Shown: positions 5,042 through 49,795 of the stretch, piece after piece
Position numbering within the stretch: position 1 is the stretch's first letter
How the letters are laid out: each line of letters begins with the position of its first letter
Source: an uncultured Trueperaceae bacterium
GTDB lineage: Bacteria; Deinococcota; Deinococci; Deinococcales; Trueperaceae
Assembly (NCBI GenBank): GCA_963799485.1
Contig: CAWCXJ010000001.1
Coordinates: forward strand, 32,001-96,000
Direction: 5' to 3'
Length of the DNA: 64,000 nucleotides
The notes under the pieces: generated by a model
Seen by the model: the letters and a program-made list of their open reading frames with translations, nothing else
Database searches by the model: none
Told to the model about the DNA's origin: nothing
Position numbers and translations under genes: made by a program

Positions 5042-5214
5042 GCAACCTTTCGTTCTCTGTAGGGTTCAAGCTCTGTCCAGTTTAGTGCATAGTTCAAAAC
5101 CTGTTGTGGCTTAGCCCATTATAAGGTGCGCGGGCGTCCTTGCCAAAGGCAGCGTACAGAACAGCTCGGTAGGGACGGCGTGTTATAAGATACCCGCCAT
5201 CAGGAGGCTGGGTT

Positions 5215-5679: not shown

Positions 5680-5706
5680 GGAACGCTCAGGCAGGTAAGC
5701 TAAGGT

Positions 5707-7206: not shown

Positions 7207-7493
7207 GGGTGTTTCTTGCGCCTCTCACAGTACCGAGACCATACCGAAACACAGTACCGAGAGGCTGCAACCGAACGTACAGCTTGTGCCCGTAAACCGT
7301 TTGGGCCGAGATAAAGTCGGGTTCAAGCTACTTCGGTTTACCCCGCCCTGACTGGCTCGCCTTGCCGGATGTACTAAGTTCTTGGATATAGGCGTCGCCC
7401 GAGGATAACCCGCTTGGCGCGAACATGCTGACCCACCGCTTTTTCAGTGGTGCTAGACCAAGGCTCCGGCAAAGCATCGACGCCGCCTATGCC

Positions 7494-7531
7494 AAAAAAA
7501 GAGGTGGGGCGCGAAGCCCCACCTCTTTTTA
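7494..7531. terminator. Bidirectional intrinsic terminator
   Basis: A-tract, GAGGTGGGGC-GCGAA-GCCCCACCTC stem-loop, T-tract, between convergent genes. Confidence 0.85.
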
Positions 7532-7586
7532 TCTCGGTTCACTATCTTGTTGTGCTGGCCTCTTGTTACGTTAGCCGTACCTTACG

Positions 7587-8579: not shown

Positions 8580-9201
8580 ATTCAATATCCTTTTCCTCTC
8601 CGCTACCCTTGACGCACGTTTAACCCGTGCGCTTCGAACCAGCATCGATTGGGGAGACTTTTGTGCAGCAAAGGCCGACCGATCTGCCGATACTCTGCTC
8701 GCACGTTGTTCGATTCCGGTTGAGGGGAGGCCATCCGCTCAACACCTGTACGAACGTATCGTATGCTTTTATGAAGATTATTAAGTCTATATGGCAATTA
8801 TATGAAATTTGACCCAATAACTTTTCATCATACCAAGCACTAAGGCCGACGACCAACCAACTTCGTGGAACGTGCAATCGTTCGGAAATGTCCTCATTTT
8901 AGCGTGTTCGGACGCTGTTGTTACAGCTAATGTGGTTTCCTTGGTAGCAAAATGCTGGCGAGACCGGTAACAGAAACGCCAGCAGCGGGACTCGCAAACA
9001 GCCAACTTCAAGTCGCTCCGATTGCACCTTTGGTCAATCTACAGTTGTCCGCAACCTCTGGACTCCGGTCTTTTAGAGCTTGCCTGTAAGCTGACGACCG
9101 CTGCCTAAAGCTTAAAGCTGTATCCCTCGGACGTACGACGTACTCCCGGCACTGTACGGCTCACGTCGCGCGTTTTTACGGGGCGGTTTATGCTTGAGCG
9201 T

Positions 9202-10644
9202 ATGATGCATACCCCCAACTGGGTTAAAGACGCCGTTTTTTATCAGATATTTCCCGACCGTTTTGCAAAAAGCGACCGCGTCTCCAAAGCGAGCAACTTG
9301 GAGCCCTGGCATACGCCGCCGACCACGCACGGCTATAAAGGGGGCGACCTGCTGGGCGTCGCGGAAAAACTGGATTATCTGCAAGACCTGGGCGTCACCG
9401 CGCTCTACTTCAACCCCATCTTTCAGTCGGGGTGTAATCACCGCTATCATACCCACGACTACACCCGCGTCGATCCGATGCTGGGCGGCAACGAGGCGCT
9501 TAGAGAGCTGCTGGACGCCGCTCACGCGTACGGCATGAAAGTTGTCTTGGACGGTGTCTTCAACCATGCCAGTCGCGGCTTCTTTCAGTTTCACGATATC
9601 CTCGAGAACGGCTCGCAGAGCGCCTATCTGGACTGGTTTCACGTCCGTTCGTTTCCGCTTTACGCCTATCACGACCCCGAACATCATCAGGGTAACCTAG
9701 GTTACTCGGCGTGGTGGAACCTGCCCGCGCTGCCCAAATTCAATACCGACACACAGGCAGTCCGCGAATTTTTGTGGGACGTCGGGACGTACTGGTTAGA
9801 GTTCGGCATCGACGGCTGGCGTTTGGATGTACCCAACGAAATCGGGGACGACGCCTTTTGGCGCGAGTTTCGCCGCCGTTGCCGCGCGGTCAACCCCGAG
9901 TGCTACATCGTCGGGGAAATCTGGGACGACGCAGGCCGCTGGCTCCAGGGCGACCAGTTCGACGCGGTGATGAACTACCCGTTTACGCGGGCGGCGTTCG
10001 GTTTTACGGCGGCCCGGACGCTAGAACACAGCGAAATCCGCCGCAGCGGGTTACAGCACATCGCGCCGCTGGGCGCGCCCGCCTTTGCCCGCGAGGTCGC
10101 AGGGCTGTTGACGCGGCACCGCCCGGAGGTGACCGAAGTGCAGCTCAACTTGCTCGGCAGCCACGATACAGCGCGCGCCCTGACGCTCGTCGGCGGCGAC
10201 GAGACGGCCTTGCGGTTGTCGCTCTTCTTGCTGCTGACGTTTCCGGGCGCGCCGTGCTTGTACTACGGCGACGAGCTGGGCCTTGCGGGGCGTCACGACC
10301 CGGAGTGCCGTCAGGCGTTCCCGTGGGACAACTCGGACTGGAACGAACCGCTTAGAGACTACCTGAAAACGCTCATTACGGTGCGGCACTGTTACCCGGC
10401 GCTGCGTAGCGGGGTGTTTAGCACCCTTTATGCCGAAGGTGGGGTGTACGCTTTTGAGCGCGGCAGACCGGGAGAACGGCTTATCGGGGTGATGAACGTC
10501 GCGGATAGACCCGAACGGCTTACCCTCGAGGTTCAGTCAGAAACCGCTCAACCGCTTTTGGCTGGGGGCGACGACTTCACCTTGCGAAACGGGGTGCTGA
10601 GCGGGACGATAGCGGAGCGCTCGAGCCTTCTCTTTAAGCTCTGA
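9202..10644 (+). CDS. GH13 alpha-amylase family (neopullulanase/cyclomaltodextrinase-like)
   Basis: [40 protein letters not shown]; start placed 7 nt after TATGCT -10 box (ORF track starts at 9190). Confidence 0.92.
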
Positions 10645-34237: not shown

Positions 34238-34972
34238 TTACGATGCGGTGACGACGAGGTGCGGTGCGTCGGCGGAGAACCGGCTACGGCTGAAGTCGCC
34301 GTAAAACTGAACGTGGCTGAAACCGTTTTGGATGAGGGCGCGCGCGAGTTCAAACCTGTAAAAATAGCGCTGCGTCAGCGTGCTGCGCTGCCGCCGTAAA
34401 ATCCCGGTCTCGTCCGTCGTGTCTAAAAAATAGTGTGAGGTCAGGGTCTGGGTGTCGGGGTCGTGGGTTTGCAGTAAAAACAGCTCGCTCTGCTCACCGC
34501 CGACGTGCGTCCATTCGGGCTCGAGCCGTAAAACGTTGAGCTCATTGAAGTTCGGCGTGTAGAGGTCGAAAGCAAAGCGCCCGCCCGGTGCCAGGTGCGT
34601 TTTTACGGTCTGCAAGGTCGCGTCTTGATCAGAAAGCGTGTAGGCGTGCATCAGCGTATTAAACGGGGCGATGATAAGGGGAAACTGCCGTTCTAAACGT
34701 ACTTTTCTCATATCGCCTTGAACGTAAGTCACGCTGTTTAGACTTTCAGCTCCCAACCGTACTTGACCGCGCCGAGTCATTTCAGGGGAGGGCTCGAGCG
34801 CCACGACTTCATGACCGGCCCGTGCGAGGGCGGCGGAGACGCGGGCCGTGCCTGCACCGAGTTCTAGCACCGGGCCGCCGTAATCGTCGGCTAAACGGGT
34901 GTAAAAGGGCAGGTCGTCGCGGTAGTTTCGGTATTGCAGGTCGTAAAGCTCGGCGAGGGGGTCGTAGTTCAT
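34238..34972 (-). CDS. Class I SAM-dependent methyltransferase
   Basis: VLELGAGTAR, QGDMR, HLAPGGRFAFD; ATGA overlap with the ABC gene. Confidence 0.88.
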   Translation of the reverse strand: MNYDPLAELYDLQYRNYRDDLPFYTRLADDYGGPVLELGAGTARVSAALARAGHEVVALEPSPEMTRRGQVRLGAESLNSVTYVQGDMRKVRLERQFPLIIAPFNTLMHAYTLSDQDATLQTVKTHLAPGGRFAFDLYTPNFNELNVLRLEPEWTHVGGEQSELFLLQTHDPDTQTLTSHYFLDTTDETGILRRQRSTLTQRYFYRFELARALIQNGFSHVQFYGDFSRSRFSADAPHLVVTAS

Positions 34973-36609
34973 ACCGGCATATGGGCAAGTTCGGAGAGAT
35001 GACCGCGCCCCAACCGTAACACCCGCTCCGCCGCCAGTGCAAGCGCCGGACGGTGCGCCACGACGACCACAAGCCGCGTTTTGGCCTGTGTTTTTAGCAC
35101 CTCGACGAGTACCCGTTCACTTTCGTCGTCCAGACTCGCACTCGGTTCGTCTAGCAGCAGCACATCGGGGTTTCGCAAGAGGGCGCGGGCGACCGAAAGA
35201 CGCTGCCGCTGCCCCCCCGAAAGCCCCGCGCCGCTCTCGGCGAGTACGGCGTCCAGACCGCGCGCTCGTACCGTCTCCTCTAACCCAACCTCCCGTAAAA
35301 CAGCCCGGAGCGTTTCATCAGAGAAGGTCTCACCGAGCGTCAGGTTGTCGCGTAGTGAGGCGCGGAAGAGCAGCGTTTCTTGCGGGACGTAAGCCACGCG
35401 GCGCTGACGTTCTGCGTCCGGATAGCGTGACAAATCGGTGCCTGCGAGCGTTACGGTGCCTGAAGTCGGTGTCAGCAAGCCCAGCAGTAGCTTGAGCAGG
35501 GTCGTTTTGCCGCCGCCACTCGGCCCGGTCAGGGCGACGAGGCCGGGGCCGGTCAACGTAAGGGTAAGGTCGTCCAGAACGGTTTCGTGGTCGCGCCGAA
35601 ACGTTACGCCGGACAGCTGCATTCTTGGGAGGCGTGGAGGGGTGGGCTCGAGCCTAGTCTGCGCTACTTTGGGCTCCAAGTCACGCAATTCCAGAAGCCG
35701 CGCTGCGCCCGCCCGCGCACTCTGCAAATGAGCGTAGGCGCGAGGTAAAAGCTGGGCAGGCGTTGACAGCAGCGCCAAAAGCGTCACGAACGCGCCGACT
35801 TCACCCAGACTCATCGCGCCGTTTTGGACGCTTCTAGTCAGGTACAAGAGGAGTCCGGCGAGCGCCGCAAACCCGAGCGCCTGCGCGAGCGGGGTTTGCA
35901 GCGCGGCCCAGCGGGTACGGCTCGCCTGCGCCCGCGCCGCCCCCATATTCGCCCTTTCGAAACGTCCGAGTAAAAACGTCTCGAGCCCAAACGCCCGGAC
36001 GACCTCGAGCTGAGCCAGCCCTTCTTGCAGGTGCGAACTCGTCTCTTCTAACAGCCCTTGCGTCTGCAAACTCCGCCGCCGGATAAACCCGCCCGCCCAG
36101 ACGAGCGCCCCGGCGAGCGGCAACGACAGGCCGAGGAGTAAAAGTGTCGCACCGGGGTTGACGTAGAGCAGATACGCGAAACTCAAAAGAAGCGTCAGCG
36201 TTTCGGCGATAAAGGTGCCGAGACCGACCTGAACGAACGCCTCGACTTGGTTAAGGTCGGCTAAAACGCGCCCGGTCAGGCCGCCGCTGGTCTTTTCGGC
36301 GCTGGGCGCGGTCTGGCCCAGCAGCGTCCGGTAGAGACCCCGCCGCCACGCCGCCCCCACCCGCGCCGCGAGCGTGCCGAACACCGCGTCTTGCGCCCAG
36401 AGCGCGACCGCGCCCAATAGCAGCACCCCGCCACCGACCCACAAAACCCGCGTCAGCGCGTCGAAATTGCCCCGGACGAACACTTGATCTAGCAGTGGTT
36501 GTACCAAAAGCGGCGCGACGGCAACCCGCACGAGCGCGTTGACTGCCGCCGCCAGTGCGCCCCAGAGCGTCAGCGCGGTGCGGGGTAAAAGGAGGCTGGG
36601 CAGCGTCAT
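34969..36609 (-). CDS. ABC exporter, fused permease/ATPase (MsbA-like)
   Basis: N-terminal TMD; GPSGGGKT, LSGGQRQR, LLLDEPSASLD, VAHR; follows the lpxB-like gene. Confidence 0.85.
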   Translation of the reverse strand: MTLPSLLLPRTALTLWGALAAAVNALVRVAVAPLLVQPLLDQVFVRGNFDALTRVLWVGGGVLLLGAVALWAQDAVFGTLAARVGAAWRRGLYRTLLGQTAPSAEKTSGGLTGRVLADLNQVEAFVQVGLGTFIAETLTLLLSFAYLLYVNPGATLLLLGLSLPLAGALVWAGGFIRRRSLQTQGLLEETSSHLQEGLAQLEVVRAFGLETFLLGRFERANMGAARAQASRTRWAALQTPLAQALGFAALAGLLLYLTRSVQNGAMSLGEVGAFVTLLALLSTPAQLLPRAYAHLQSARAGAARLLELRDLEPKVAQTRLEPTPPRLPRMQLSGVTFRRDHETVLDDLTLTLTGPGLVALTGPSGGGKTTLLKLLLGLLTPTSGTVTLAGTDLSRYPDAERQRRVAYVPQETLLFRASLRDNLTLGETFSDETLRAVLREVGLEETVRARGLDAVLAESGAGLSGGQRQRLSVARALLRNPDVLLLDEPSASLDDESERVLVEVLKTQAKTRLVVVVAHRPALALAAERVLRLGRGHLSELAHMPV

Positions 36610-37787
36610 CCTGCTAACAGCCGGGTGACGAGTTTGGTGGCGGCCCCCGGCCTCGGCATGGTCGCAAGTAGCCGTTCGCGCCGCCGGTTTCGTTCAGCTT
36701 CATCGTCCAATAACCTCAAAACTTCAGCCAGTACCCCGCCCAGCGTGAGCGTACCTTTAAGCTCCACCATCAACTTCTCCCCGCTCAGGTTGTTCGGCAA
36801 ACTCACCGGCAGGTGCGGCGCGGCTAAGAGCACCGCGCGGCGTTTTAGGCTGGGGCCGACCAGCGGCACGAGCGAAAGCCAGTGTCCGGGGCCCTCGAGC
36901 GGAATCACTTCGGGTTTATTGAGCGGCAACAAAACCACCGACGGCACCCCGGCGATGCCGAGTTCTAGGGTGTTCGTACCGGGGATGGTTACGGCGAGGT
37001 CGGCGGCGCGCATGTGGGCGTAGCGGGTGTTTTCGGGGACGAGCTCGAGCTTGGCCCCGCTCGGCGTCATGATAACGTCCCCCACACGTTTTCCGGAGAT
37101 CCCACCGAGGGTGTCTTGTTCGGCTCCGGCGGCCCCCTGCGCCAGCGTTTCTTCACTCAGCAACCGGCTGACCGGCCAGACAAAGCGGGCGTTCGGGTAG
37201 TGCGCGTAGAGCGCGTCGGTAAGTGCCAGCATGAAGGGAATAATGTGGACGGCAAAACCGTCACGGGAGCCGCACATCATCACGATATGCGGCGCGCCGC
37301 GCTCCGTCACGGGTTCACTCAGCTGGGCGGCGTCGGCGACGAGGTTGCCGACAACTTCCGTGCGTCCCCCCGGTGCACCTAAAAGCCGCGCCCTTTGCGC
37401 CGTGCGCGGTGAATCGACAAACAGCGTCCTAAGTTTTTTGTGCCAGTACGGGACGAAGGAATAGCGGTAGGCCGGGGCGCGTAACTTAGCCGCAAGCCGT
37501 AACGCAAGGTCGGCGCTGCCGCCGAGCCCGAGCACGGTTTCGGCCTGCGCCCCGAACACCGCGCGGTTTCCGGCTATAAGCCCCAGAAAATCTTTCGGAC
37601 TCGTGACCTTATCCGCGCCGAAAGTCTCGGCGATTTTCGTCTCACTGCCGCTGGCAAACTGGCACGGAATGAGGCTCACCGTAACGTGCCGTTCGGGGGC
37701 TTGCCGCCGCAGTTCGGCGAGTACCGGGCGCACCCAGGTATAGAGTTCGCCGGGGCCGTTGCTGAGCAGTATGATGTCACCAGCCAC
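36606..37787 (-). CDS. lpxB: LpxB-like (lipid A disaccharide synthase family) glycosyltransferase
   Basis: ILLSNGPGEL, VVGNLVAD, CGSR, ADLAVTIPGTNTLELG, SLPN; located after lpxA. Confidence 0.7.
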   Translation of the reverse strand: MAGDIILLSNGPGELYTWVRPVLAELRRQAPERHVTVSLIPCQFASGSETKIAETFGADKVTSPKDFLGLIAGNRAVFGAQAETVLGLGGSADLALRLAAKLRAPAYRYSFVPYWHKKLRTLFVDSPRTAQRARLLGAPGGRTEVVGNLVADAAQLSEPVTERGAPHIVMMCGSRDGFAVHIIPFMLALTDALYAHYPNARFVWPVSRLLSEETLAQGAAGAEQDTLGGISGKRVGDVIMTPSGAKLELVPENTRYAHMRAADLAVTIPGTNTLELGIAGVPSVVLLPLNKPEVIPLEGPGHWLSLVPLVGPSLKRRAVLLAAPHLPVSLPNNLSGEKLMVELKGTLTLGGVLAEVLRLLDDEAERNRRRERLLATMPRPGAATKLVTRLLAG

Positions 37788-37796
37788 GATAAACCT

Positions 37797-38567
37797 CTAA
37801 ACGAACGCGGAAAGCCCGCGTTTGGCTGAGGCTTGAAACTCAACCATCAGGTGCACATCGTCACTAAGAAGTGCGAGTTCTTTCAGCAGTGCCCAGTCTC
37901 GGTGACGAAAAGCCCGCACAGCCTTTTCCAGATAACGGTAACGCTCCCCGCCCACACCGCGACGTGCTAAACCGACCCGGTTAAGGCGGTAGTGCCGCGC
38001 CGGATTGCCCCGCGCCATGCTAAAGGGCAGCACGTCCCGGTTCGACGCGCTCCCTGCGCCGAACATGGCGTGTGCTCCGATACGGCAGTGCTGATGTACC
38101 ATTGCCGCCGCGCCGAGTACCGCGTAATCGCCGACCTGCGTGTACCCGCCAAGCTGTACTTGCGTGGTGAGTACGCAGCCCCGCCCGACCCGCGCGTTGT
38201 GCGACACATGCGCCGACGCCATAACCAGCGTGTCCGCGCCGACCCTGGTTTCATTCCCTTCGCCGCTCGCCCGGTGAACGGTTACGAATTCGCGCAGCGT
38301 CACCTGTTGTTCTAACACCGTAAAACTTGGTTCGCCGCGAAACGCCGTGTCCATCGGTGCCCCGCCGACGACCGCGTAAGGCCCGACGCGACAACCCGCT
38401 CCGACGCGGCTCCCGGTATGCAGCACGCTGCCGGTTTGAATAACGGCGTTTTCACCAACCTTGACCCCCGCTTCGATGACGACAAACGGCCCGACGACGC
38501 AGCCCTCCCCGAGTTCGGCACTCCACGAAACGACCGCCGAAGGGTGAACCGTTGCCAACGTACTCAT
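37797..38567 (-). CDS. lpxA: Acyl-ACP--UDP-GlcNAc acyltransferase
   Basis: Hexapeptide repeats, LREFVTVHR, AHVSHN (catalytic His), VHQ, GNPA..LN..GL.RRG. Confidence 0.85.
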   Translation of the reverse strand: MSTLATVHPSAVVSWSAELGEGCVVGPFVVIEAGVKVGENAVIQTGSVLHTGSRVGAGCRVGPYAVVGGAPMDTAFRGEPSFTVLEQQVTLREFVTVHRASGEGNETRVGADTLVMASAHVSHNARVGRGCVLTTQVQLGGYTQVGDYAVLGAAAMVHQHCRIGAHAMFGAGSASNRDVLPFSMARGNPARHYRLNRVGLARRGVGGERYRYLEKAVRAFRHRDWALLKELALLSDDVHLMVEFQASAKRGLSAFV

Positions 38568-38575
38568 AAGGGTGG

Positions 38576-39025
38576 TTATGAAGCGAAAACGAACGACAAG
38601 GTGGCTTCGGCGGCAACTTCATCCCCGACCAGGGCTTTGGCTTCGACGCGGCAGAGGCGGCGGCGAAAGAGCGTGATGGTGCCGACGAGCCGCAACACGT
38701 CGCCGGGAACGACCTTGCGCTTGAATTTGGCCCCATCGACCCCGGCGAGGTAGCCAATTTGCGGTTCGGTATCCGGTCCCGTCCAGCCTTCACGCACCGC
38801 TAAACCGACAGCGGACGCCTGGGCGAGCGCTTCGATAATTAAAACCCCCGGCATCACGGGTTCAGTGGGAAAATGGCCTTGAAAATAGGGTTCGTTAAAC
38901 GAAACGTTTTTACGGCATTCGAAGGCGTCTCCGTCTTGTGAGACGAAGGCGTCGACGAGCAAAAAAGGGTAGCGGTGCGGTAGTAGCGCGCGCAGCTCGA
39001 GGGGGCTTTTCGGGTCGGTACTCAC
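38576..39025 (-). CDS. fabZ: 3-hydroxyacyl-ACP dehydratase
   Basis: LPHRYPFLLVD, NEPYFQGHFP, PGVLIIEALAQ, VVPGD. Confidence 0.95.
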   Translation of the reverse strand: MSTDPKSPLELRALLPHRYPFLLVDAFVSQDGDAFECRKNVSFNEPYFQGHFPTEPVMPGVLIIEALAQASAVGLAVREGWTGPDTEPQIGYLAGVDGAKFKRKVVPGDVLRLVGTITLFRRRLCRVEAKALVGDEVAAEATLSFVFAS

Positions 39026-40008
39026 GTCAAGACCATCTGCCGGGTGAGGTCGTTTTGTGCGTGGAGGTCGGTCACGAGTTGCGTGGCGAGCTGCAGCGCG
39101 CGCAGGTCGTCGTCCAAGGTACCAATTGGTGGGGTGCGGCGGCGGATACGGGCGAGGAAGTGTTCTAACTCGCGCCGCAAAGGGTTGTCCTCGTGAACGA
39201 TCAGCCTGTCCATCTGAATCTCGGAGTGGCTGGTATGTCCGGCACCCTCGGCGACGGGCCGGTAAATCGACACCTCGGTGTGCGGCTCTTTGCCGAAGTC
39301 CACCCGGAGCGTCTGTTTCTTTTCGGCAATCACGAGCGTGCGTTCGGCGTCGGGAGCGACGCGTGAGGCCAAAAAGCGGGCGATACAGCCGTTGCTAAAG
39401 GTAATCTGGGCAGCGGCGATGTCTTCATGCCCGGTCTCGCTCAAGATGTGCCCGGAGACGTGCACGCTCCGAATCGGGTACGGAACGATGCCCAGCACGA
39501 TGTCGATATCGTGAATCATCAGGTCTAGAATAACGCCGACGTCTTGAATACGGGCGTTCGGAGTCAACCGCCGCGCTTCGATGAGGTAGGGCTCGCTGAT
39601 ACGTTCGCCTAACAGCTCGACGGCTTGATAAAAACGGGTGATGTGCCCAACTTGCAAGATCAAACCCTGGGTGCGGCTGAGCGCGGCCATCCGTTCGGCT
39701 TCAGGAACGCTGCCGGCGACCGGCTTTTCGACCATCACGTGAACCCCGGCCCCTAGTAGCTGTTCGGTCACGTGGCAATGGTCGCTCGTCGGCGCGGCGA
39801 CACTGGCGGCGTCGAGTGTTTCGGCCTCGAGCAGTGCGGTCACGTCCGAATAGGTGGCAACGGCAAAGCGCTGGGCAGCCTCGGCGCGGCGTTCTTCGCT
39901 CGGGTCGACGATAGCAGTGAGATCGGTATAGGGTAGCGCGGCGTAGACGCCCGCGTGGTTTTTACCCATCACGCCAAAACCGACGACGGCGACGTGGAGG
40001 CGTTTCAC
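39022..40008 (-). CDS. Gfo/Idh/MocA oxidoreductase (GnnA-like)
   Basis: VVGFGVMGKNH, VEKP, QVGH..RF, R..DVGVILDLMIHDID. Confidence 0.85.
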   Translation of the reverse strand: MKRLHVAVVGFGVMGKNHAGVYAALPYTDLTAIVDPSEERRAEAAQRFAVATYSDVTALLEAETLDAASVAAPTSDHCHVTEQLLGAGVHVMVEKPVAGSVPEAERMAALSRTQGLILQVGHITRFYQAVELLGERISEPYLIEARRLTPNARIQDVGVILDLMIHDIDIVLGIVPYPIRSVHVSGHILSETGHEDIAAAQITFSNGCIARFLASRVAPDAERTLVIAEKKQTLRVDFGKEPHTEVSIYRPVAEGAGHTSHSEIQMDRLIVHEDNPLRRELEHFLARIRRRTPPIGTLDDDLRALQLATQLVTDLHAQNDLTRQMVLT

Positions 40009-40045
40009 CGCACACCTCTAGGTTGGAGCGAGTTGCTAGGTTTGG

Positions 40046-40855
40046 TCAAGGTAACTCCCCGGGGTCGCCCGCAGGCGAAGGCACGAGTGAGAGTAACATA
40101 GCTTCGCGCAAAAGTGCCCGTGCGAAGGCAACGTGTGCGCTGTGTGAGCCCCGCATGACCTCGAGCCGTCCCAACAGTGGCCTGCCGAGCAGATAAAAGT
40201 CGCCGAGCGCGTCGAGCGCCTTGTGCCGGACGGGTTCGTCGGGCACGCGCAGCTCGGTCATCGGCCCGGCGTCGCCGTAAACGATGGCGTTTTCCAGGTT
40301 GGCGGCGGTCGCAAGGCCGTTCTCGCGCAGTTTTTCCAGCTCGCTCAAAAAGCCGAACGTCCGGGCGTGGAGCAGCGTCTCGTACCCTTCCGGGCCGCCG
40401 CACCACCGCTGCCGACCGATTGCGGGGTGCGCGAAGTCGATCTCGGCGCAAAGTTCGGGGTTGCCGGGCAAGACGCGGCAGCGCGTTTCACCCTGCTCGA
40501 GCGCAAACGCGTGCCCGACGACAAACCCCGGCGGTGCGGGCGGCGGCGCGCCGAGGTCGTCCAAAAGCCCCAGCCAGGGTGCGGCGGAACCGTCTAGAAT
40601 CGGCACTTCGTCGGCGGACACTTCGATCACCAGATCCGACCACCAGCCGCGCACGGCGAGCGCTGCCAGCAGGTGTTCGACCGTCAAAACCTGATAGCCG
40701 TCCCTACCGAGGGTGGTGCTGCGGTTCGTTTCGGTGACGAACTCGAGCCGCGCCGGAATCTCCTGTTTGCCGCGCCGAAACCGCACCCCGCCTGTCTCCG
40801 GGTGCAGGTGTACCCACGACGGTGCGCCGGTATGGAGGCCGTAACCGCTAATCAT
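40046..40855 (-). CDS. lpxC: UDP-3-O-acyl-GlcNAc deacetylase
   Basis: [42 protein letters not shown]. Confidence 0.92.
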
Positions 40856-42002
40856 CGTTTTTTCTGTTTCCAGGGTCGTTTTTAAGGTGTTTCCAGAGCG
40901 CCTCGAGCTTGCTCAGCAAGTAGAGCTCACGAACCCAGCGGCGGTGGGGCCGCGCCGGATAGCCCGCCCAAACCTCACCCGCCGGGACACTTTTGAGGAC
41001 GCTCGAGCCCCCCGCAATCCGCACCCCGTCACCGAGCTGAACGTGGTCGGTGACACCGACTTGTCCTCCCAAAACGACCCCGCGCCCGAGTACGGTGCTG
41101 CCGCCAATCGCCGACGCCCCCGCAACGACACAATCCGAACCCATCACGACGTTGTGCCCGATTTGACAGAGATTGTCGATTTTGGTGCGAGCGCCGATAC
41201 GGGTTTCGTGAAGCGTCCCGCGGTCGATACAACTGTTTGCCCCGACCTCTACGTCGTCTTCTAAAACGACCGTACCAAGATGATGGATTTTAACCGCACC
41301 CTGCGGCCCGAAGGCGTAACCGAAACCGTCTGCGCCGACCACCACGCCGCTATGCAAGATGACCCGCGCGCCGAGTTGCACCCCCGGATAAAGCGTGACG
41401 TTGGCCAGTAGCCGCGTTCCTTCGCCCAAAACAGCCCCGTCACCCAATACGCACCCCGCCCCGATACGGCACCCTGCGCCAACGCTGACCCCCGCGCCGA
41501 CAACCGTCCCCGCGCCGACGCCGACCCCTTCGCCGAGCACCGCGTCCGGGTGAATAACTGCCGTCTCTGCAATGACCGCTTGCGGGACCGGGGGCGCAAA
41601 AATCGCGGTCAGTTGCGCGAACGCAAGCCGGGTGTCAGGGACGGTAATAACCGGACAAGAGAAGGTGTTAGAGCCGCCGGGCCCCAGGCTTCCATTTGGA
41701 ATAACGAGCGCGCCCAGCTGCGGTATGTCTGCGTGATTTCGAAACGCTGCTAACTGCGCCGCCGAAACAACGACCACACTCCCGTGCTGAGGCGTGTGGT
41801 CCAGGTCTTCGGGTGACAGGTTGGTAAGTGACAGGTTATCGGCTGACAGTAAAGTGGTGACGGGGCGGTTTTCACCGCTGAGTCGCCCGCCGAGCTTTTG
41901 CGCTAAAGTCTCCGCGTCGGTAGCGTTCGCTGTGCCCTTTACCTTGCTTGCCGCAGTACTTATCGTAGTACTCACGGCAGTACTTATCGTAGTGTCCGTC
42001 AC
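40848..42002 (-). CDS. lpxD: UDP-3-O-acylglucosamine N-acyltransferase
   Basis: [36 protein letters not shown]. Confidence 0.92.
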
Positions 42003-43792
42003 GGCTGCTCCAGAAAACGAGTAAACCCCAGGTCGATGCTCGGCTCGAGCGGCGGGTTCTCCTCTAACGGGTCTTCGCGGGGGCCTGTTTCCGGCAGGGT
42101 TTCGGGTGTCTCGTCGGGTGGGTTGTCGGGCGCAGGTGCTGATTCAGGGGGCCGCGCTGCAGGCTGTTTTGGGCCACGCACCTTTAGGTCGACGTATTCG
42201 CTTCCCGAAATGAGGTACGGCAGACTGAGGCGCGTCAAAAGTCTCGCTTTACCCCCCACGGTCGCCTCGACGACGAGTTCGCTCGCCTGCACATTGTCTT
42301 CGATCGCGCCTAAGAGTTCGGCAAACGACAAGAGTGGACGCAGGTCGCCTTCGCCCTCGGCAGGGGTCGCGCCGCCGCGCACACTCAGCGTCACCGCGCC
42401 GCGCAGTTTGGGCGGGAGCCGCACCTTGACGCGCTCGACGACGGGCTCTGTGCGGTAGGGTTGCAGCCGCACGTTGAGAAACAACGTCGCGCCCGCCTCG
42501 AGGTTTGTACGTTCCGGAACGACTTCGACAAGCTCGGCGACGCGCTCCTGCTGCCTGACCTGAATACTCATCGAAACGCGCGTGACCTCGGCAGCCTGAA
42601 ACGGGTTTCCGGCAAAAAGGGCGAGCGGTTCGGCGGCGAGGCCGGCGGCGGCGAAAGCGAGGTCGTCCGGTGAAGCGGTCTGCTCGAGCGCCCGCACTCT
42701 CCGGCCCCCCGCGAGGGTGATGTCCCACGCCAGCTCCGCAGTACCGCCTCTACGCGCCGCTAGCAGTTCGTCGAAAGCTTGCAACGTCGCCGAGGCCAAG
42801 AGCGGCGCGTAAAGGCGTTCGTCGCCCGCGACCTCGAAGCGTTTCTCGAGCGCACCCGCGTCACCGCTAAAATGAAGCGTTACCGGGACGAACTCGGGAG
42901 CCTTGCCGACAACCCCGCTGATCGCGTAAGGTCGGTCTTGGGTCACGCTGCCAAGAATCCGCCGTCCGCTGTCGGCGAGCTTGAAAGGGGTGGTGCGGCT
43001 CGGGACGAGCGCAGTGATGTAGGCGGGCGCGAGCGCCAGCGATACCGGCCCGCGCCCTAAAAGCGGATGTCCGAACGCCCAGAACTCATCGTCCTCCAGC
43101 ATCGTCAGCGTCCCGACGGCGGCGACGGTCACGTCACCCCGGACGAGCTGCACACTGATCGCGCTCCCCGGTTGGAGCTTGAAGGCCTCGTCTTGCCGCG
43201 CGTAGGCGTTTTGGAGGCGTGTCCCTGCCACCGGGAGATTAAGGGGCTCGAGCGAGTCGGCCAACAGCGGCCCTAAAAATGCCCCCGCACGTTCCGACAA
43301 CCCTGAAATGAGCAGCGGTGTGCGGACGGGAACGATGCGGCTAAAGTCGATTTCCGGCCCGAACGCGGTGCGTTTGTCCGTTTTTGGCTCAGCACGCGGA
43401 TCGGCGCGGCGCATCGTCGCAATCGGCGTAACGAGCCCCAAGCCTCCGGTACTCTCCGGAAAGGTAAAGCTGACAGCCCCCAGGAGTGCGTCTTTGCCCC
43501 CGTAACGCAGGTAGACCGGGCTGCCGCTCATACCCGAGGCGATACCGCCGGCGTCTTCGATAACCTTCCCGCTCGCCCGAATCAGCACCAGCGGAAAGCC
43601 GGTGCCGGCGTCGTACTGGAGTGCTAAAACCTCGACGTCAAAACGTGCGATTCGGTTGCCGGCTACGGCAGTGAGGGCGTAACCGGTCTGACCGGGCTCG
43701 AGGGCAGCAAGGGGCATCGGGGTGGCGGCGCGTACGCTACCAAACATGCCCAAAAACACGGTGAGTGCGAAGAAACTTGCGCGAGTAATCAT
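41999..43792 (-). CDS. Secreted SpoIVB peptidase S55-domain protein
   Basis: Signal peptide; [19 protein letters not shown]...AFGHP; FKLA...G.VTQDR. Confidence 0.8.
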
Positions 43793-43835
43793 AGCCAGTA
43801 GCGGCTACAGAAACTTGTGTGCTTTGCAAGTCGGC

Positions 43836-44867
43836 TCAAGGCTGGCGCTCCGGAAAACGCTCGGAAACGAGGGCGTCCTCAGGTTCGGTCAGCGAGAGCG
43901 CCCTGCCGGTGCCGAGCACCACACAGTCGGCAGCGTTTTCCGCCACGACGACGGGCAGACCGGTCGCTTGCCCCAAGAGATCGGCGAGGTTACGCAGGCG
44001 CGCCCCACCGCCGGTTACGGCGATGCCCTTGTCGATAACGTCCGCAGCGAGTTCGGGGGGGGCAGCTTCCAAAACGCGCTGAACTGCCGCGACGAGCTTC
44101 TCGAGGGGATCGCGGAGCGCCTCTACCACATCGTCGGTGGTCACGACCACGTTTTTCGGCATACTGCTGGTGATGTCACGCCCGCGCACCTCGAAGCTGC
44201 CGACTTCGTCCGAACCTTTAAGTGCCGCTCCGACCCGAAGTTTGATCTCCTCGGCGGTGCGGTCGCCGATCAGCATATTTTCCTTGTGCCGGATAAAGCG
44301 CACGATGGCCTCGTCGAACTCACTCCCGGCAATTCGCAAAGATTCTGCGACGACCACGCCGCCCAAGCTGATGACGGCCACGTCGGTGGTGCCGCCGCCG
44401 ATATCGACAATCAGCTTGCCGGTCGGTTCGGTGACGTCTAGACCTGCGCCGATGGCGGCGGCGAGCGGCGCTTCGATCAGGCGTGCCTGCTTCGCGCCGA
44501 CCTCACGCACCGCCTGCAGCACCGCGCGTTTTTCGGCGTCGGTAACTCCGGGCGGAACACAGACCATAACGTTGTACCCCAAAAGACGGCCCGGCCCGCT
44601 CAGCACACGCCGAAGAAACGCTCCCAGCATCTTTTTGGTCAGCGCGTAGTCGGCAACCACGCCGTCTCGCAGCGGTCTTACCGTGACGACGCTGCCGGGG
44701 GTACGTCCGAGTAGCCGGTAGGCTTCTTCGCCGACGGCGCGCACCTCGCCGGTCTCTTTGGCAAGTGCGACGACCGAGGGTTCGCGGAGTACGACGCCCT
44801 TGCCCCTGACGTAGATTAGAACCGTTGCCGTGCCCAGATCGACGCCGATCTCCTGAGGTCTAAACAT
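43836..44867 (-). CDS. mreB: MreB/Mbl-family actin-like protein
   Basis: GVDLGTA, EPSVVA, PLRDGVVAD, DIGGGTTD, TGGGA. Confidence 0.88.
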   Translation of the reverse strand: MFRPQEIGVDLGTATVLIYVRGKGVVLREPSVVALAKETGEVRAVGEEAYRLLGRTPGSVVTVRPLRDGVVADYALTKKMLGAFLRRVLSGPGRLLGYNVMVCVPPGVTDAEKRAVLQAVREVGAKQARLIEAPLAAAIGAGLDVTEPTGKLIVDIGGGTTDVAVISLGGVVVAESLRIAGSEFDEAIVRFIRHKENMLIGDRTAEEIKLRVGAALKGSDEVGSFEVRGRDITSSMPKNVVVTTDDVVEALRDPLEKLVAAVQRVLEAAPPELAADVIDKGIAVTGGGARLRNLADLLGQATGLPVVVAENAADCVVLGTGRALSLTEPEDALVSERFPERQP

Positions 44868-44998
44868 CGCGCACGGTCTCTGGCGGCGGGAGCATCATAG
44901 CGGTAAAAACAGCACCGGTAAAAACAGCGGTAACGACGAAGGTCACAGGGCAGTATACCCCGCTCGCTGAAGTCGGCCTGAAGAAATCGAAACGGATT

Positions 44999-46313: not shown

Positions 46314-48248
46314 CTAGCCGGGCGCGCCGACCGGTTCGAGGAGCGTGACGAGTTCGGGCAGGGCGTCGAGCGCAGCTTGCCGAACCGCGCCGCGCCAACT
46401 CGGGGCGCGGGTTATGAGAGCGAGGCTGCGGGCGCGGGTCAACCAGAAGATCACGAGCGTATAACCCTGGGTTTCGACGCTCAGCGTTGTAGCGTCCTCT
46501 TCTCCCAGCCCCTGCCCCAGGGTGTCGGCGCGCCGTTTGGTTAGGCGCACGGCGCGTTGCAGCGTTTTGACCGCCGTCGGCAGGTTGCCTGAAACGAGCG
46601 TATCGGCTTCGATAAAGAGTGCGAGTCCGGCGACACCTTCGTGCGCGGCTTGACGCTCGAGCCAAGCTTGCACCTCCGGGTGAGGCGTAGACGGTGAAGT
46701 TGCCGGGATAGCAGGTTTGGCGGCTGCTCGGGGCGGCCCGGCAAACAGCTCTAGACCACCCAGCATATCGTCTAGCGCGTCGTTTCCTGCCAACAGTTGG
46801 GCGGCGACGGCGCGGGTCGCCTCGGCCTCTTCTTGCAGCCCGGCAATCAGCGCTTCGGTCTCCCGCAAACTCGCCTCGAGTTCGGCTTGACGCTTGGGAG
46901 AAACGCGCTGTGACGCGCCCTGCTGCGCGCTTAGCGCCCCGAGCTGCCAGCGCAGCGTCAGCGCCGCGTCCGAGTTGAGCGTTTGAAGCGGCGTGGCGGC
47001 GTTTTGAGCGGCGGCGACCCGGCCCACGAAGCTCTGGGCGCTCCGCTGCTGCTCGGCTTTGGCCCTCTTCAAAAGCGTCCAACCCTCGTCTAAATTGGGG
47101 AGGAGGTGGGCCTTCTCGAGCCCTTCACGCGCCACGGTCAAAAAGCTCTCGAGTGCCCGACCTGAATCGCTCGCCACGACGCGGTAGCTCTCGGCGTCGG
47201 TCTCGAGGCGGTGAAAGTCGGCTAGGTGTTCCGGGTCGAGGTCGCCCGCGCGGAGCAGGTCACGAACGCGCTTGACGTCGGCAGCGGGTGGGAGCGCCGT
47301 TTCCAGCACCTTGAGCGAGAGCCTGAGCAGCTGCGCGAGTTCAGGATTTTCGACCCCGTACTTAAGCGTATGGAACTCTTCTGCCAAACTCTTGCGAAGG
47401 GTTTCTCTTTGCGCCTCGAGCTCGCTGCGAAAAGTTCGGAGCTTGTCGCCTAAAACGTTTCCGTCGGCAACTTGCTTTTGCAACCCGGCAAGTTTTTCGC
47501 CGAGGGCGGGCTCGAGGGCCAAAAGTGTACCGAAGGTTTCGGGTAAGGCGCGCAGCTCACGCGCCTCGTCACCTAAAATCCTGAGCTTTTCCGCGCGCAG
47601 GTCGCCTGCGAGTTGATGCGCCCGTTCAACCTCTGCCGGAACCCGCTGCTGCGCTTCCTGGGCTCCCCGAATCAGTTCTAGGAGTCCACTCAAACGCCGC
47701 ACTTTGGGGCTGCCCAGGCTGCTGTGTTCGCCCCAGGTGGCCTCCAAGAGCGCCAGTTCGCGCGCCTGCACCGAGAGCTGGTCGTTGAGTTTCTGTTGCA
47801 ACACGCCGAGTTGAACCTGAGCCGCCGCAATCAGCTCACTGGCGTTGCGGGTCGCGGCGTGTTCGGTTTCGATAAGCGAGAGTTGCGCGCGCAGTTTCTG
47901 GGTTTCACTCCACTCGAAATAGATGTTAAACGGCTTGAGCGAAGCTTGCAGCAGTCCTATTGCCCGCGCCTGCGCGCTCAGGCTTAGCGCTTTTTCCGCA
48001 CCGACCGCAACCTGAACAAGCTTTTCGGATATGGTTTGAACGGTCTCTTTCGCCTTTGCCTCACCGAGTGAAAGTGTCAGGCGCGGGAGCACCCGACCCC
48101 GCAAAATCACCTCGGCGTCTTGTGGCGCAAGCGTTTCAGGGGTTTTGCCGACGGTGATGAGCCCTTCGTGCAGCGCCTGCGACACGAGCCGGGGGGAGAG
48201 CACCGCCTCGAGTTCACGGACGGCTGCCTTATAGAGCGCGTTCGCCAT
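46314..48248 (-). CDS. Hypothetical helical/coiled-coil protein with a probable C-terminal roadblock/LC7-like domain
   Basis: 644-aa ORF rich in A/L/E/Q/R; C-terminal HEGVAGLALF..DTLVSG...LGQGLG....TLSVETQGYTLVIFWL...LALIT fits the roadblock pattern. Confidence 0.6.
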   Translation of the reverse strand: MANALYKAAVRELEAVLSPRLVSQALHEGLITVGKTPETLAPQDAEVILRGRVLPRLTLSLGEAKAKETVQTISEKLVQVAVGAEKALSLSAQARAIGLLQASLKPFNIYFEWSETQKLRAQLSLIETEHAATRNASELIAAAQVQLGVLQQKLNDQLSVQARELALLEATWGEHSSLGSPKVRRLSGLLELIRGAQEAQQRVPAEVERAHQLAGDLRAEKLRILGDEARELRALPETFGTLLALEPALGEKLAGLQKQVADGNVLGDKLRTFRSELEAQRETLRKSLAEEFHTLKYGVENPELAQLLRLSLKVLETALPPAADVKRVRDLLRAGDLDPEHLADFHRLETDAESYRVVASDSGRALESFLTVAREGLEKAHLLPNLDEGWTLLKRAKAEQQRSAQSFVGRVAAAQNAATPLQTLNSDAALTLRWQLGALSAQQGASQRVSPKRQAELEASLRETEALIAGLQEEAEATRAVAAQLLAGNDALDDMLGGLELFAGPPRAAAKPAIPATSPSTPHPEVQAWLERQAAHEGVAGLALFIEADTLVSGNLPTAVKTLQRAVRLTKRRADTLGQGLGEEDATTLSVETQGYTLVIFWLTRARSLALITRAPSWRGAVRQAALDALPELVTLLEPVGAPG

Positions 48249-48250
48249 CT

Positions 48251-49795
48251 CTAGAAGTCTTCGTCCCAGTCGAGGGTACCTGTCGCAAGGGGGGCCGACC
48301 GGGGTGCGTAGCCCGGCGCTTGCCCTGCGGCGCTCCGGTCGCGCTCCGGCGGGGTCGTCTTATCCGCTTCGCTTTGGTGGTCGGTTATACGTTCGGCTGC
48401 ATGTCCTGCAGTGCGCCAGCCAATAGCAAGGCAGAGCACGGCGGCAACGGTCAGGGAAACCCAGACGAGCTGCATCACCGGATTTACAAAAAGTGAATAG
48501 CTGCCGGCCTGAGCGAGCTGCGGCTGATCGACAAGCGGTGCGAGGAGATCGGCAAGCGCGACGAAGCCTTGGGCGACGGCGGGTAAGAGCAAGAGAGCGA
48601 GCGCTGCGTCTTGCCACGGCGACGTGTTGGGGGCAAATAGCAGCCGGACAAGCCCTACGAGCGCGAGTAGCCCGGCGGCGATGAAAAGCAGGTCGCGCAC
48701 GTCCGGGGTCAAAAAGGGTAGCGCGGGAGCCACACCGGGCTCCGTAACGTCGGTTTGAACAGGTTCGGTCTGGCCCGAGCTGGTTGCGGGGTTTGGAAAG
48801 GTAGGCTGCGTGTTGCCGTCCGTTAGGGCGTCGTCAAGGGTCGTAACCGGGGGCACAAACGGGGCCGCGCCGGAACCGTTCTCTGAGGCGTCGCTCCCGG
48901 TCGTCTGGTTCGGGGCAGTTGCCGGGTCGGGTTGTGCCTGAGTCCGAGCTGCCGTTTCTCCGTTACCGTTTCCGGCACCGTCTCCAGCACCGTCTTTAGC
49001 ACTGTCCCCGGAGTTGTCCCCGGCTCCAGCACTGTCTGTTTGCGCTACTGCTTCCGCCTCGGCGCGTTCGGCTCTCCTGGCAAACCCGGTAAGTTGCGCC
49101 CTGAGCAGGCTTATCCCCTCGTCAATCGGACGTTCTGCGACGAGCGCCCGGATCGTGCCGATCACGGTATCTTGCGTTTTCGGCGGCAGACGCGGCGAGT
49201 CTTGCACGAGAAAAATGTAGCTGTAGAGCTGCGCGAGCGTCCGGTAGCGGTCTTCGAGGTTGCCGCCGAAGGTGCCGAGTTGTGCGAGACCGCGCGCCGC
49301 CAACCGCGCCTCGAACGCACCCTGCAACGCCGCTTGCGCCAAGCCGCTAAACTGCGCGTCCGCAAACCCCAAGTCCCGGCCTAGTACATTCAAGAAATTC
49401 CGGGCACTCTCCAGGTCACCGTTTGCCGCGTTCTGGAGGGCCTGCTGGTAAACGGCGCGGCCGAAGCCGCCCTGCAGTACGGCGGACTGCACCTGCAGGT
49501 CGGTCTCGCTCTGGTTGACGATAGCCTCTTCCGCGCGGCTGAAGGTCGCGTTCAGACCGCTGCGGAGGGTCGGCTTGAGCAACGCCCCGAGTGGCTCAAA
49601 GGCGATTTCGGCCTGCCTCAAGGCGTCCAGACTTTCAACCTGGTCGCTTGGAAAGGCGGCGATACTCGAGCGCAGCGCAGCAGTCGCGTCCTCGTAACTC
49701 GTCAGCAGGGGTTGCGCCAGACCAAAGCTGGCACTGAGGAGGCATGAAGTTAGCAGCAGTTTTGTTAGCAGTGGCATAAATATCGTTGGTTTCAT
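48251..49795 (-). CDS. Hypothetical exported/membrane protein
   Basis: RBS AAGGAG; signal peptide, helical domain, G/D/T/P-rich linker, about 3 transmembrane helices, acidic tail LDWDEDF. Confidence 0.65.
   Translation of the reverse strand: MKPTIFMPLLTKLLLTSCLLSASFGLAQPLLTSYEDATAALRSSIAAFPSDQVESLDALRQAEIAFEPLGALLKPTLRSGLNATFSRAEEAIVNQSETDLQVQSAVLQGGFGRAVYQQALQNAANGDLESARNFLNVLGRDLGFADAQFSGLAQAALQGAFEARLAARGLAQLGTFGGNLEDRYRTLAQLYSYIFLVQDSPRLPPKTQDTVIGTIRALVAERPIDEGISLLRAQLTGFARRAERAEAEAVAQTDSAGAGDNSGDSAKDGAGDGAGNGNGETAARTQAQPDPATAPNQTTGSDASENGSGAAPFVPPVTTLDDALTDGNTQPTFPNPATSSGQTEPVQTDVTEPGVAPALPFLTPDVRDLLFIAAGLLALVGLVRLLFAPNTSPWQDAALALLLLPAVAQGFVALADLLAPLVDQPQLAQAGSYSLFVNPVMQLVWVSLTVAAVLCLAIGWRTAGHAAERITDHQSEADKTTPPERDRSAAGQAPGYAPRSAPLATGTLDWDEDF

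Follow-up and report, generated by a model that had tools for sequence, protein, structure and literature searches.

A conserved Deinococcota operon with an LpxB paralogue in place of LpxB, probably for a truncated, Kdo-free route to a lipid A-like glycolipid

Which lipid do those Deinococcota make that carry lpx genes? Thermus and Deinococcus serve, in a passage of PMC13721041, as the textbook outer membranes without lipopolysaccharide (LPS). LPS genes in part of the Deinococcus-Thermus group were already noted in the text of PMC5007114, where they are taken to be ancestral. The question is raised here by a locus of an uncultured Trueperaceae bacterium, within a stretch of 64,000 nucleotides that we call the window (contig CAWCXJ010000001.1, positions 32,001 to 96,000). 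Ten co-directional genes of this window encode MreB, an S55-like protein, LpxD, LpxC, an oxidoreductase of the Gfo/Idh/MocA family, FabZ, LpxA, an LpxB-like protein, an ATP-binding cassette (ABC) transporter and a methyltransferase. Our results point, with a probability that we put at roughly 0.6, to a truncated and non-canonical form of the Raetz pathway, encoded by an operon found across the Deinococcota and leading to a lipid A-like glycolipid free of 3-deoxy-D-manno-oct-2-ulosonic acid (Kdo). The product is probably an outer-membrane lipid differing from classical endotoxin. The enzyme families are demonstrated, and the chemistry that joins them is what we infer.

Gene families were assigned with Pfam and NCBIfam models against curated cut-offs, and five of the assignments (MreB, LpxD, LpxC, FabZ and LpxA) lie above them. 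In the list of open reading frames (ORFs) of the window, the ten genes are all on the minus strand, at the positions given by an earlier account made from the letters alone (hereafter the sequence-only reading). The tight packing described there is borne out by the ORF coordinates. Four pairs of genes share start/stop overlaps of 4 nt (41999-42002, 39022-39025, 36606-36609 and 34969-34972), one pair overlaps by 8 nt (40848-40855), and the remaining gaps measure 43, 37, 8 and 9 nt, all below 45 nt. Alignments to solved structures agree with the same account in that the zinc ligands of LpxC and the catalytic histidines of LpxA and LpxD are intact. Compared with Pseudomonas aeruginosa LpxC, the Glu-His pair, the H..D zinc motif and the later His are all kept; LpxA retains its catalytic His, and so does LpxD when aligned with E. 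coli LpxD 3eh0 (E. coli position 239 by count on the alignment).

The assembly that holds the window (3.66 Mb, 15 contigs) is 99.99% complete, and the closest public relatives of its LpxB-like protein belong to Truepera and other Trueperaceae metagenome-assembled genomes, at 89% identity or less. For 20 genomes of four Deinococcota families, we mapped the window proteins onto the 20 kb around LpxC. Families are numbered f1 to f6 as in our 364-genome set of the phylum, f1 being the window's own. The core genes are contiguous, in the order lpxD-lpxC-gfo-fabZ-lpxA-lpxB-like-ABC, in 15 of the 20 loci, across the four families; hence, the arrangement is more than chance. All ten genes keep their order in 7/11 f1 loci, and in five of the six f4/f5 loci the core stands behind mreB, with neither the S55-like gene nor the methyltransferase. 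Three f3 loci and one f5 locus hold only mreB-(S55)-lpxD-lpxC locally; in the two f3 genomes checked, fabZ-lpxA-lpxB-like is located elsewhere in the genome, and the f5 genome has its LpxB-like gene elsewhere, with no fabZ or lpxA beside it. The mreB gene adjoins lpx genes in 19 of the 20 loci, and the oxidoreductase gene occupies its operon position in 16, lying between lpxC and fabZ in f1, f4 and f5. More variable are the S55-like gene, which f1 and f3 loci have at its place and f4/f5 loci lack, and the methyltransferase gene, which follows the ABC gene in 8/11 f1 loci and the LpxB-like gene in one f3 locus. Altogether, these data support the view, advanced in the sequence-only reading and examined here across the phylum, that the ten-gene block is a coupled and conserved operon. 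In one Trueperaceae genome (L047, G246:C1, 5360-8656), an insertion sequence-type integrase and an OLD-family ATPase/TOPRIM gene lie between gfo and fabZ and split the operon.

The distribution of the genes follows the same lines. LpxC was detected in 167 of the 364 genomes (f1, 113/127; f2, 0/125; f3, 17/19; f4, 2/23; f5, 33/68; f6, 1/1), and the LpxB-like protein in 174 (117/127, 0/125, 19/19, 2/23, 34/68 and 1/1, respectively), so the spread of the two in the phylum nearly matches. These tallies take in one unpublished genome, G325, on which no claim rests.

Most of the remaining Raetz pathway could not be found. In the genome that holds the window, profile hidden Markov model (HMM) searches gave no match for LpxK, WaaA, LpxI, LpxH, KdsB or the LpxL/LpxM family, KdsA reached only 107 bits against a cut-off of 314, and PF02684, the LpxB model, hit only the window gene, at 24 bits, so that there is no true LpxB. 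Nor was a true LpxB found in 20 relatives, where PF02684 scored only 20-32 bits; this makes 21 Deinococcota genomes in all. The searches for the hydrolase covered LpxH and LpxI, and in 20 LpxC-positive genomes from five families neither was detected (LpxI, PF06230, 0/20; LpxH, TIGR01854, 0/20). Among 161 genomes of at least 90% completeness, LpxK exceeded its cut-off in one, as a 33-bit fragment on a 1.5-kb contig, and WaaA in one f2 genome, at 26 bits. The genus with the LpxK fragment has no LpxC-positive genome (LpxC in 0/23 family members outside two other genera), and neither match falls in the 16 f1 genomes or in the 24 genomes of the LpxC-positive genera g51, g54, g55 and g57. LptD had no match in the window's genome either; its model responded in only 2/14 control genomes, so that the miss is weak and we did not use it as evidence. 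Thus, of the canonical Kdo2-lipid A pathway, LpxA, LpxC and LpxD were found, and LpxH/LpxI, a true LpxB, LpxK, WaaA, KdsA/KdsB and a late acyltransferase were not. The sequence-only reading had seen no lpxH/I, lpxK, waaA or kds gene in the window, which now holds for the whole genome by HMM search, and the complete canonical pathway that it allowed for elsewhere in the genome was sought and not found. Because neither the remaining Raetz steps nor Kdo synthesis were found in a genome of such completeness, a Kdo-free, non-canonical product, which that reading had suggested as a possibility, is the best interpretation.

The gene in the position of lpxB does not encode an LpxB orthologue, as its earlier label implied, but a member of a separate paralogue family. 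The window protein matches PF02684 with 25 bits over only 39 residues and TIGR00215 with 19.5 bits against a cut-off of 190. As a single query it found no relative of solved structure. A profile built from 16 Deinococcota homologues gave a collinear match to E. coli LpxB (E 7.7e-5) and nothing else significant among solved structures. The AlphaFold model (predicted local distance difference test score of 91.9) shows a GT-B fold whose top Foldseek matches include UDP-N-acetylglucosamine (UDP-GlcNAc) 2-epimerases and MurG, with LpxB at rank 9. In a maximum-likelihood tree of 33 sequences, five true LpxB proteins split from all paralogues and Deinococcota proteins with 100/100 support, and the eight Deinococcota proteins form one group (100/99). 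An exhaustive profile search retrieved 2671 cluster representatives (clusters at 50% identity) at E <=0.001, 409 of them at E <=1e-30, indicating that the paralogue family is large. Since the paralogue is distinct from LpxB, a disaccharide backbone cannot be assumed.

Members of this family also occur together with true LpxB. In protein P0155 (789 aa), a complete true LpxB (344.7 bits) and a paralogue-family member form a natural fusion. A second natural fusion of this kind, of 842 aa, lies at L181:7720-10248, with a GnnA-like gene before it and an ICMT-family methyltransferase gene after it. We recovered 80 metagenome loci with paralogue members from outside the Deinococcota. Of the 62 loci with at least 1.2 kb of upstream sequence, 12 have a gene for true LpxB immediately upstream of the paralogue, as do four shorter loci. 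Two clusters illustrate the arrangement: L176 reads lpxC-fabZ-[lpxA]-LpxI-LpxB-paralogue-ABC exporter-unknown GT-B-GT2...LptB-LptFG, and L181 reads lpxC-fabZ-Gfo-lpxA-[LpxB~paralogue fusion]-ICMT. Of the 72 ORFs scanned in seven loci with both LpxB and the paralogue, none had an LpxK or WaaA domain. On the other hand, only 5 of the 26 loci that extend for 5 kb or more on each side have any lpx gene, so part of the paralogue family works in other contexts.

The paralogues keep the UDP-binding motifs of LpxB, that is, the N-terminal Glu, the G-S-R pyrophosphate loop and the T...E ribose motif, and have a family-specific motif of their own, P-C-x-[YF]-A-S-G-x-E. Where true LpxB has the first Asp of its conserved D-x-P-D-F-type motif, an Asp also aligns in 13/13 paralogues from outside the Deinococcota and in 0/16 from within. 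In all 16 Deinococcota proteins this column holds S, A, N or G, and in 6 of them an Asp follows two or three residues later. Table 3 of PMC5785501 lists E15, S17, D98, P198-G199-S200-R201, T277 and E281 for E. coli LpxB. By alignment, the column of the conserved Asp would correspond to D98, in the region predicted to hold the catalytic base.

Five Trueperaceae genomes from three genera (G290, G337 and G340-G342) retain LpxA (210-246 bits) and the paralogue and have no LpxC; for LpxD, they show only cross-hits of 45-53 bits on lpxA. Paralogue scores, as listed for G290, G337 and G339-G341, are 492-601 bits; in G339, which is 80% complete, the paralogue is present and no LpxA match exceeds 36 bits. 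The clearest case is G290, 97% complete and on one contig, with the order mreB-S55-gfo-fabZ-lpxA-paralogue-ABC-methyltransferase and about 370 nt where lpxD-lpxC would sit. Its remaining operon genes are intact, with 52-66% identity to those of the window. This operon lies in locus L234 (G290:C1:835700-855699). The run gfo-fabZ-lpxA-paralogue-ABC-methyltransferase is likewise intact without lpxD and lpxC in locus L235 (G341:C14), and L236 (G337:C7) holds only fabZ-lpxA-paralogue. The intact state of the G290 genes where LpxC and LpxD are missing suggests that the set of LpxA, oxidoreductase, paralogue and ABC protein keeps a function.

Among proteins of solved structure, the oxidoreductase comes closest to 7bvj, with 125.6 bits against 62 bits for the runner-up. 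The structure 7bvj is named as the UDP-GlcNAc 3-dehydrogenase GnnA in 10.1101/2024.11.05.622173. GnnA and GnnB, as described in the text of PMC5644692, make UDP-2-acetamido-3-amino-2,3-dideoxyglucose (UDP-GlcNAc3N) for lipid A with a diamino-sugar backbone, in which all acyl chains are amide-linked. The gene is therefore closest to GnnA and is a candidate for a UDP-GlcNAc 3-dehydrogenase. The redox tailoring of the lipid that had been ascribed to it does not agree with this relationship, as GnnA acts on the UDP-GlcNAc precursor and not on the finished lipid. Two strong DegT-family genes of the same genome are possible GnnB partners. One, on contig C8, adjoins folD-nusB-accC-accB; the other is LegC-like and adjoins an O-antigen-ligase-like (Wzy_C) gene. 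The Deinococcota lpx loci scanned contained no DegT gene, either in their gaps or in their flanks.

The transporter is a generic ABCB-type exporter. It scores below both MsbA cut-offs (TIGR02203, 232.6 against 602; TIGR02204, 249.7 against 780.4), its top solved relatives are of the ABCB1 type, and MsbA is not among its 60 best solved relatives, so the name MsbA-like given earlier reflects context only. An ABC exporter follows the paralogue in the Deinococcota and in other lineages, and this recurrent pairing in unrelated lineages ties the protein to the pathway.

With these assignments, the pathway that we favour could run as follows. The GnnA-like dehydrogenase and an unlinked aminotransferase may convert UDP-GlcNAc to UDP-GlcNAc3N. 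LpxA would add a 3-hydroxyacyl chain taken from the branch point at FabZ, LpxC would take off the acetyl group, and LpxD would add a second acyl chain to give UDP-2,3-diacyl-GlcN(3N), where GlcN(3N) is glucosamine or its 3-amino form. At this point the route would depart from the textbook, the acylated UDP-sugar being used by the GT-B enzyme of the paralogue family with no LpxH/LpxI, true LpxB, LpxK, Kdo steps or late acyltransferase. The neighbouring ABCB-type exporter would carry the product across the inner membrane, and a soluble methyltransferase may act on it in Trueperaceae. Such a route would need no LpxK and would end in a lipid A-like glycolipid without Kdo, whose backbone could be a disaccharide or a monosaccharide, or else a sugar attached to some other acceptor.

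Several observations weigh against this interpretation. The Asp conserved elsewhere in the paralogue family is lost in the Deinococcota, which makes the enzyme chemistry uncertain. The GnnA-like protein scores 173 bits with NF040723, below the cut-off of 450, the sole curated cut-off available. Relatives of the C8 DegT protein (44-51% identity) also occur in LpxC-negative Deinococcaceae and Thermus, so that its phyletic profile does not bear on a role as GnnB. LptF/G (three copies) and OstA-like genes are present in the window's genome; these models also respond in the LPS-free Thermus and Deinococcus controls, and in Thermotoga, and hence do not discriminate. Moreover, HMM searches cannot exclude LpxG or a non-homologous hydrolase, kinase or Kdo route.

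The gene order lpxD-lpxC-fabZ-lpxA-lpxB is also that of the cluster described for Cyanobacteria and Dictyoglomi, likewise without LpxK and WaaA (PMC3087551), and the Deinococcota operon could accordingly serve an ordinary four-enzyme lipid A pathway, with the paralogue as a fast-evolving disaccharide synthase and an unrecognised hydrolase supplying its acceptor. The product would be a tetra-acyl GlcN(3N) disaccharide without Kdo or phosphate, which would then carry polysaccharide. A tetra-acyl disaccharide lipid A lacking Kdo and phosphate has been reported for marine Synechococcus. E. coli LpxB as the sole significant solved relative of the family profile, the kept UDP-binding motifs and the two Wzy_C genes of the genome are all in keeping with such a synthase. 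We consider it possible but rather unlikely. The protein groups with paralogues that coexist with true LpxB or are fused to it, which means that the family has its own job where LpxB is present. In addition, the family's Asp is lost in the Deinococcota, no LpxH or LpxI was found in the 21 genomes, and the retention of LpxA and the paralogue after the loss of LpxC and LpxD, in five genomes of three genera, misfits a strict diacyl-GlcN disaccharide synthase.

Those same five genomes suit another proposal, in which the product is not lipid A at all: the paralogue would move a mono- or di-acylated aminosugar from UDP to another acceptor (a glycerolipid, a glycolipid or a carrier), and the ABC protein would export it. 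It also accords with the distant family members, most of which lie away from lpx genes, and with the absence of a true LpxB, a hydrolase and a kinase. However, LpxC and LpxD are kept in most genomes, including the one studied here, with intact catalytic residues and translational coupling to the rest; no acceptor-making gene is linked; and the proposal draws on absences and phyletic patterns only. We regard it as unlikely. A sharper version holds that LpxC-positive Deinococcota make no lipid A and that the paralogue, their only GT19-like enzyme and devoid of the family's Asp, does not use lipid X as acceptor and attaches the acylated (di)aminosugar to some different molecule. This idea is improbable; it would imply a previously unseen class of outer-membrane acyl-aminosugar lipid, of which the LpxC/LpxD-less Trueperaceae would make a mono-acyl version. 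Finally, the genes might be leftovers of an ancestral LPS pathway that no longer yields any membrane lipid. An LPS outer membrane followed by later losses is proposed for the ancestor of the phylum by Antunes et al. (PMC5007114, in the text concerned), and the genes have gone from whole families (f2, much of f4 and f5) and from some f1 genera. We find this scarcely credible, since intact ORFs, conserved catalytic residues, overlapping starts and stops, and synteny kept between families at only 38-48% protein identity argue for purifying selection. The truncated, Kdo-free pathway thus remains our preferred interpretation.

Table 1. Features of the operon and its immediate upstream region; positions count from the first letter of the window.
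Feature	Position	Strand	Basis
Promoter-like -35/-10 pair (TTTACC, 17 nt, TATGAT), just upstream of mreB	44894..44922	-	Consensus scan
mreB, first gene of the co-directional block	43836..44867	-	NF010539, 429.5 bits (cut-off 293); TIGR00904, 399 bits (cut-off 365.75)
Secreted S55-like protein, 597 aa, signal peptide	41999..43792	-	PF05580, 30.3 bits, residues 32-114 only
lpxD, with low-complexity N-terminal extension	40848..42002	-	NF002060, 318.1 bits (cut-off 207)
lpxC	40046..40855	-	PF03331, 215.1 bits (cut-off 27)
GnnA-like Gfo/Idh/MocA oxidoreductase, candidate UDP-GlcNAc 3-dehydrogenase	39022..40008	-	Closest solved relative 7bvj; NF040723 below cut-off
fabZ	38576..39025	-	NF000582, 152.5 bits (cut-off 113)
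lpxA	37797..38567	-	NF003657, 237.1 bits (cut-off 226)
GT-B glycosyltransferase of the LpxB-paralogue family, not an LpxB orthologue	36606..37787	-	Profile, tree and model
ABCB-type half-transporter (transmembrane and nucleotide-binding domains), presumed exporter/flippase of the product	34969..36609	-	ABC_membrane, 123 bits; ABC_tran, 110 bits
Class I S-adenosylmethionine-dependent methyltransferase, last gene, start overlaps the ABC stop	34238..34972	-	Methyltransf_25, 59.2 bits

The other genes of the block call for a few remarks (Table 1). The promoter scan returned three sites in the region, compared with 1.8 expected, and is weak evidence only for an mreB promoter. A cation/proton antiporter gene flanks the block downstream and tsaB-tsaE upstream. 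Just upstream of tsaE-tsaB lie two minus-strand ORFs of 644 and 514 aa (46314-48248 and 48251-49795) that match no Pfam or NCBIfam model and are syntenic in most Trueperaceae loci, at 30-66% identity. The N-terminus of LpxD carries a Thr/Ser/Ala-rich low-complexity stretch of about 30 residues ahead of the region that aligns with its relatives. The true lpxD start may lie downstream, in which case the 4-nt overlap with the S55-like gene would vanish. In LpxA, a Tyr replaces the His of the conserved G-H motif found in the two best PDB matches, of Burkholderia and Proteus type. This His, which we take to be E. coli His144, lies at a position where the change might bear on the choice of sugar nucleotide.

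The methyltransferase is a generic class I enzyme, with generic nearest neighbours in the Atlas. The methyl tailoring of the lipid put forward in the sequence-only reading is a putative one, and both this gene and the S55-like gene are absent from the f4/f5 operons. The S55 peptidase proposed in that reading stands in so far as there is a PF05580 match, and falls short in that this match gives only 30 bits over residues 32-114. It covers profile positions 116-198 of 210, and TIGR02860 reaches 25.8 bits against a cut-off of 305. The protein has a GMSGSP serine motif (Ser89) followed by an AFGHP histidine motif (His242), both residues being invariant in 13 homologues. In SpoIVB, the His precedes the Ser. 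The order in the S55-like protein is thus reversed, and a circular permutation or a split domain is possible. Its nearest Atlas clusters are PF05580 proteins of about 600 aa, and the family occurs in several diderm phyla. A Foldseek search with the whole model, single domains not being searched, gave no meaningful match (TM-score at most 0.13). The mreB and S55-like genes share the orientation of the operon and are conserved next to it, and we found no evidence that links either product mechanistically to the lipid.

Some genes elsewhere in the genome were also noticed. The third LptF/LptG-like gene lies in L026 (G000:C8:240001-260000, 5064-9034), preceded by two ORFs without Pfam match (219 and 719 aa) and an M16 peptidase gene pair, and followed by a relA/spoT gene. 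The second of the two Wzy_C genes (L027, G000:C6:516001-534000, 5858-9863) adjoins genes for a GNAT acetyltransferase and a LegC-like aminotransferase, a neighbourhood that hints at surface glycan assembly. We also considered a third LpxB-related GT-B family, of about 400 aa, as the missing disaccharide synthase. Its gene follows the ABC exporter in other lineages, and the member in this genome (G000:C13:117924-119099; L223:8924-10102, plus strand) encodes 392 aa with no Pfam match. The candidate was ruled out, as the family occurs in 77/125 f2 genomes and in Thermus and is not specific to lpx genes. An aspartokinase gene lies between this gene and a Wzy_C gene some 2.4 kb away, and relatives of its product exist in LpxC-negative Deinococcaceae as well as in Thermus.

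The nearest described system is the four-enzyme pathway of Cyanobacteria and Dictyoglomi, with its lpxD-lpxC-fabZ-lpxA-lpxB cluster and an LPS without Kdo and phosphate (Opiyo et al., 2010; PMC3087551, in the text concerned). Hence, the claim of an atypical pathway stands in that the operon is not canonical, and loses in novelty in that a four-enzyme, Kdo-free pathway was already on record there. Both systems have lpxD, lpxC, fabZ and lpxA in this order and then a GT19-like gene, in a genome without LpxK, WaaA or late acyltransferases, and for both a Kdo-free product is expected. Unlike in Cyanobacteria and Dictyoglomi, the last enzyme here is not a true LpxB (24-25 bits with PF02684 over 39 residues); this model exceeded its cut-off in 4 of the 14 control genomes, and Synechococcus elongatus was among the six that gave a signal. 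The Deinococcota operon further differs in the GnnA-like gene between lpxC and fabZ, in the mreB and S55-like genes in front, and in the appended ABC exporter, to which Trueperaceae add the methyltransferase. The GnnA-closest oxidoreductase inside an lpx cluster recalls the GnnA/GnnB route of Acidithiobacillus ferrooxidans (GnnA 7bvj), Leptospira and rhizobia. In contrast to that route, no GnnB is linked here, and those organisms have complete pathways with LpxB, LpxK and WaaA, as far as the text of PMC5644692 describes them, which this genome does not.

No paper that deals with lipid A in Truepera or Meiothermus, with the operon's product or with the function of any LpxB paralogue came out of a literature search, outside which lay the supplementary tables of PMC3087551 and PMC5007114, where Deinococcus-Thermus lpx genes may be listed. 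Leptospira lpxB1/lpxB2 appear in PMC4758666 as a gene-list mention only. New in this study are the paralogue in place of true LpxB, the loss of the family's Asp in the Deinococcota, the GnnA-like gene in the operon and the LpxC/LpxD-less variants. These variants, together with the paralogue, make the question concrete and testable in cultured strains (Truepera radiovictrix, Meiothermus), and nearly half of the sampled genomes of the phylum keep an lpx operon whose product is undescribed.

With E. coli LpxB (GT19; 5W8S/5W8N/5W8X), the paralogue shares the GT-B fold, the N-terminal Glu, the G-S-R loop and the T...E motif; it differs in its separate clade, in the P-C-x-[YF]-A-S-G-x-E motif and in the aligned Asp, which is not kept in the Deinococcota. 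The ABC protein resembles MsbA as a half-transporter encoded beside lipid A genes, although its scores stay below both MsbA models. The closest parallels are the clusters of uncultured bacteria in which LpxB and the paralogue stand in tandem or are fused (L176, L174, L167, L181 and P0155). Their paralogues score 220-325 bits over the full length with the Deinococcota profile, an ABCB-type exporter follows, and their scanned neighbourhoods agree with the Deinococcota in having no LpxK or WaaA domain. They differ in that they also hold a true LpxB, and LpxI in three of the seven loci scanned, whereas the Deinococcota paralogue stands alone. In Dictyoglomus, the text of PMC5167688 gives an extra 'hypothetical protein related to LpxB' after lpxB (Dtur_0823/0824), a pair that is probably of the same tandem type. 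Altogether, this comparison flags an uncharacterised GT-B family that accompanies LpxB and an ABC exporter in clusters that showed no LpxK or WaaA, and that is relevant to the assembly of Kdo-free LPS and to the evolution of the diderm envelope.

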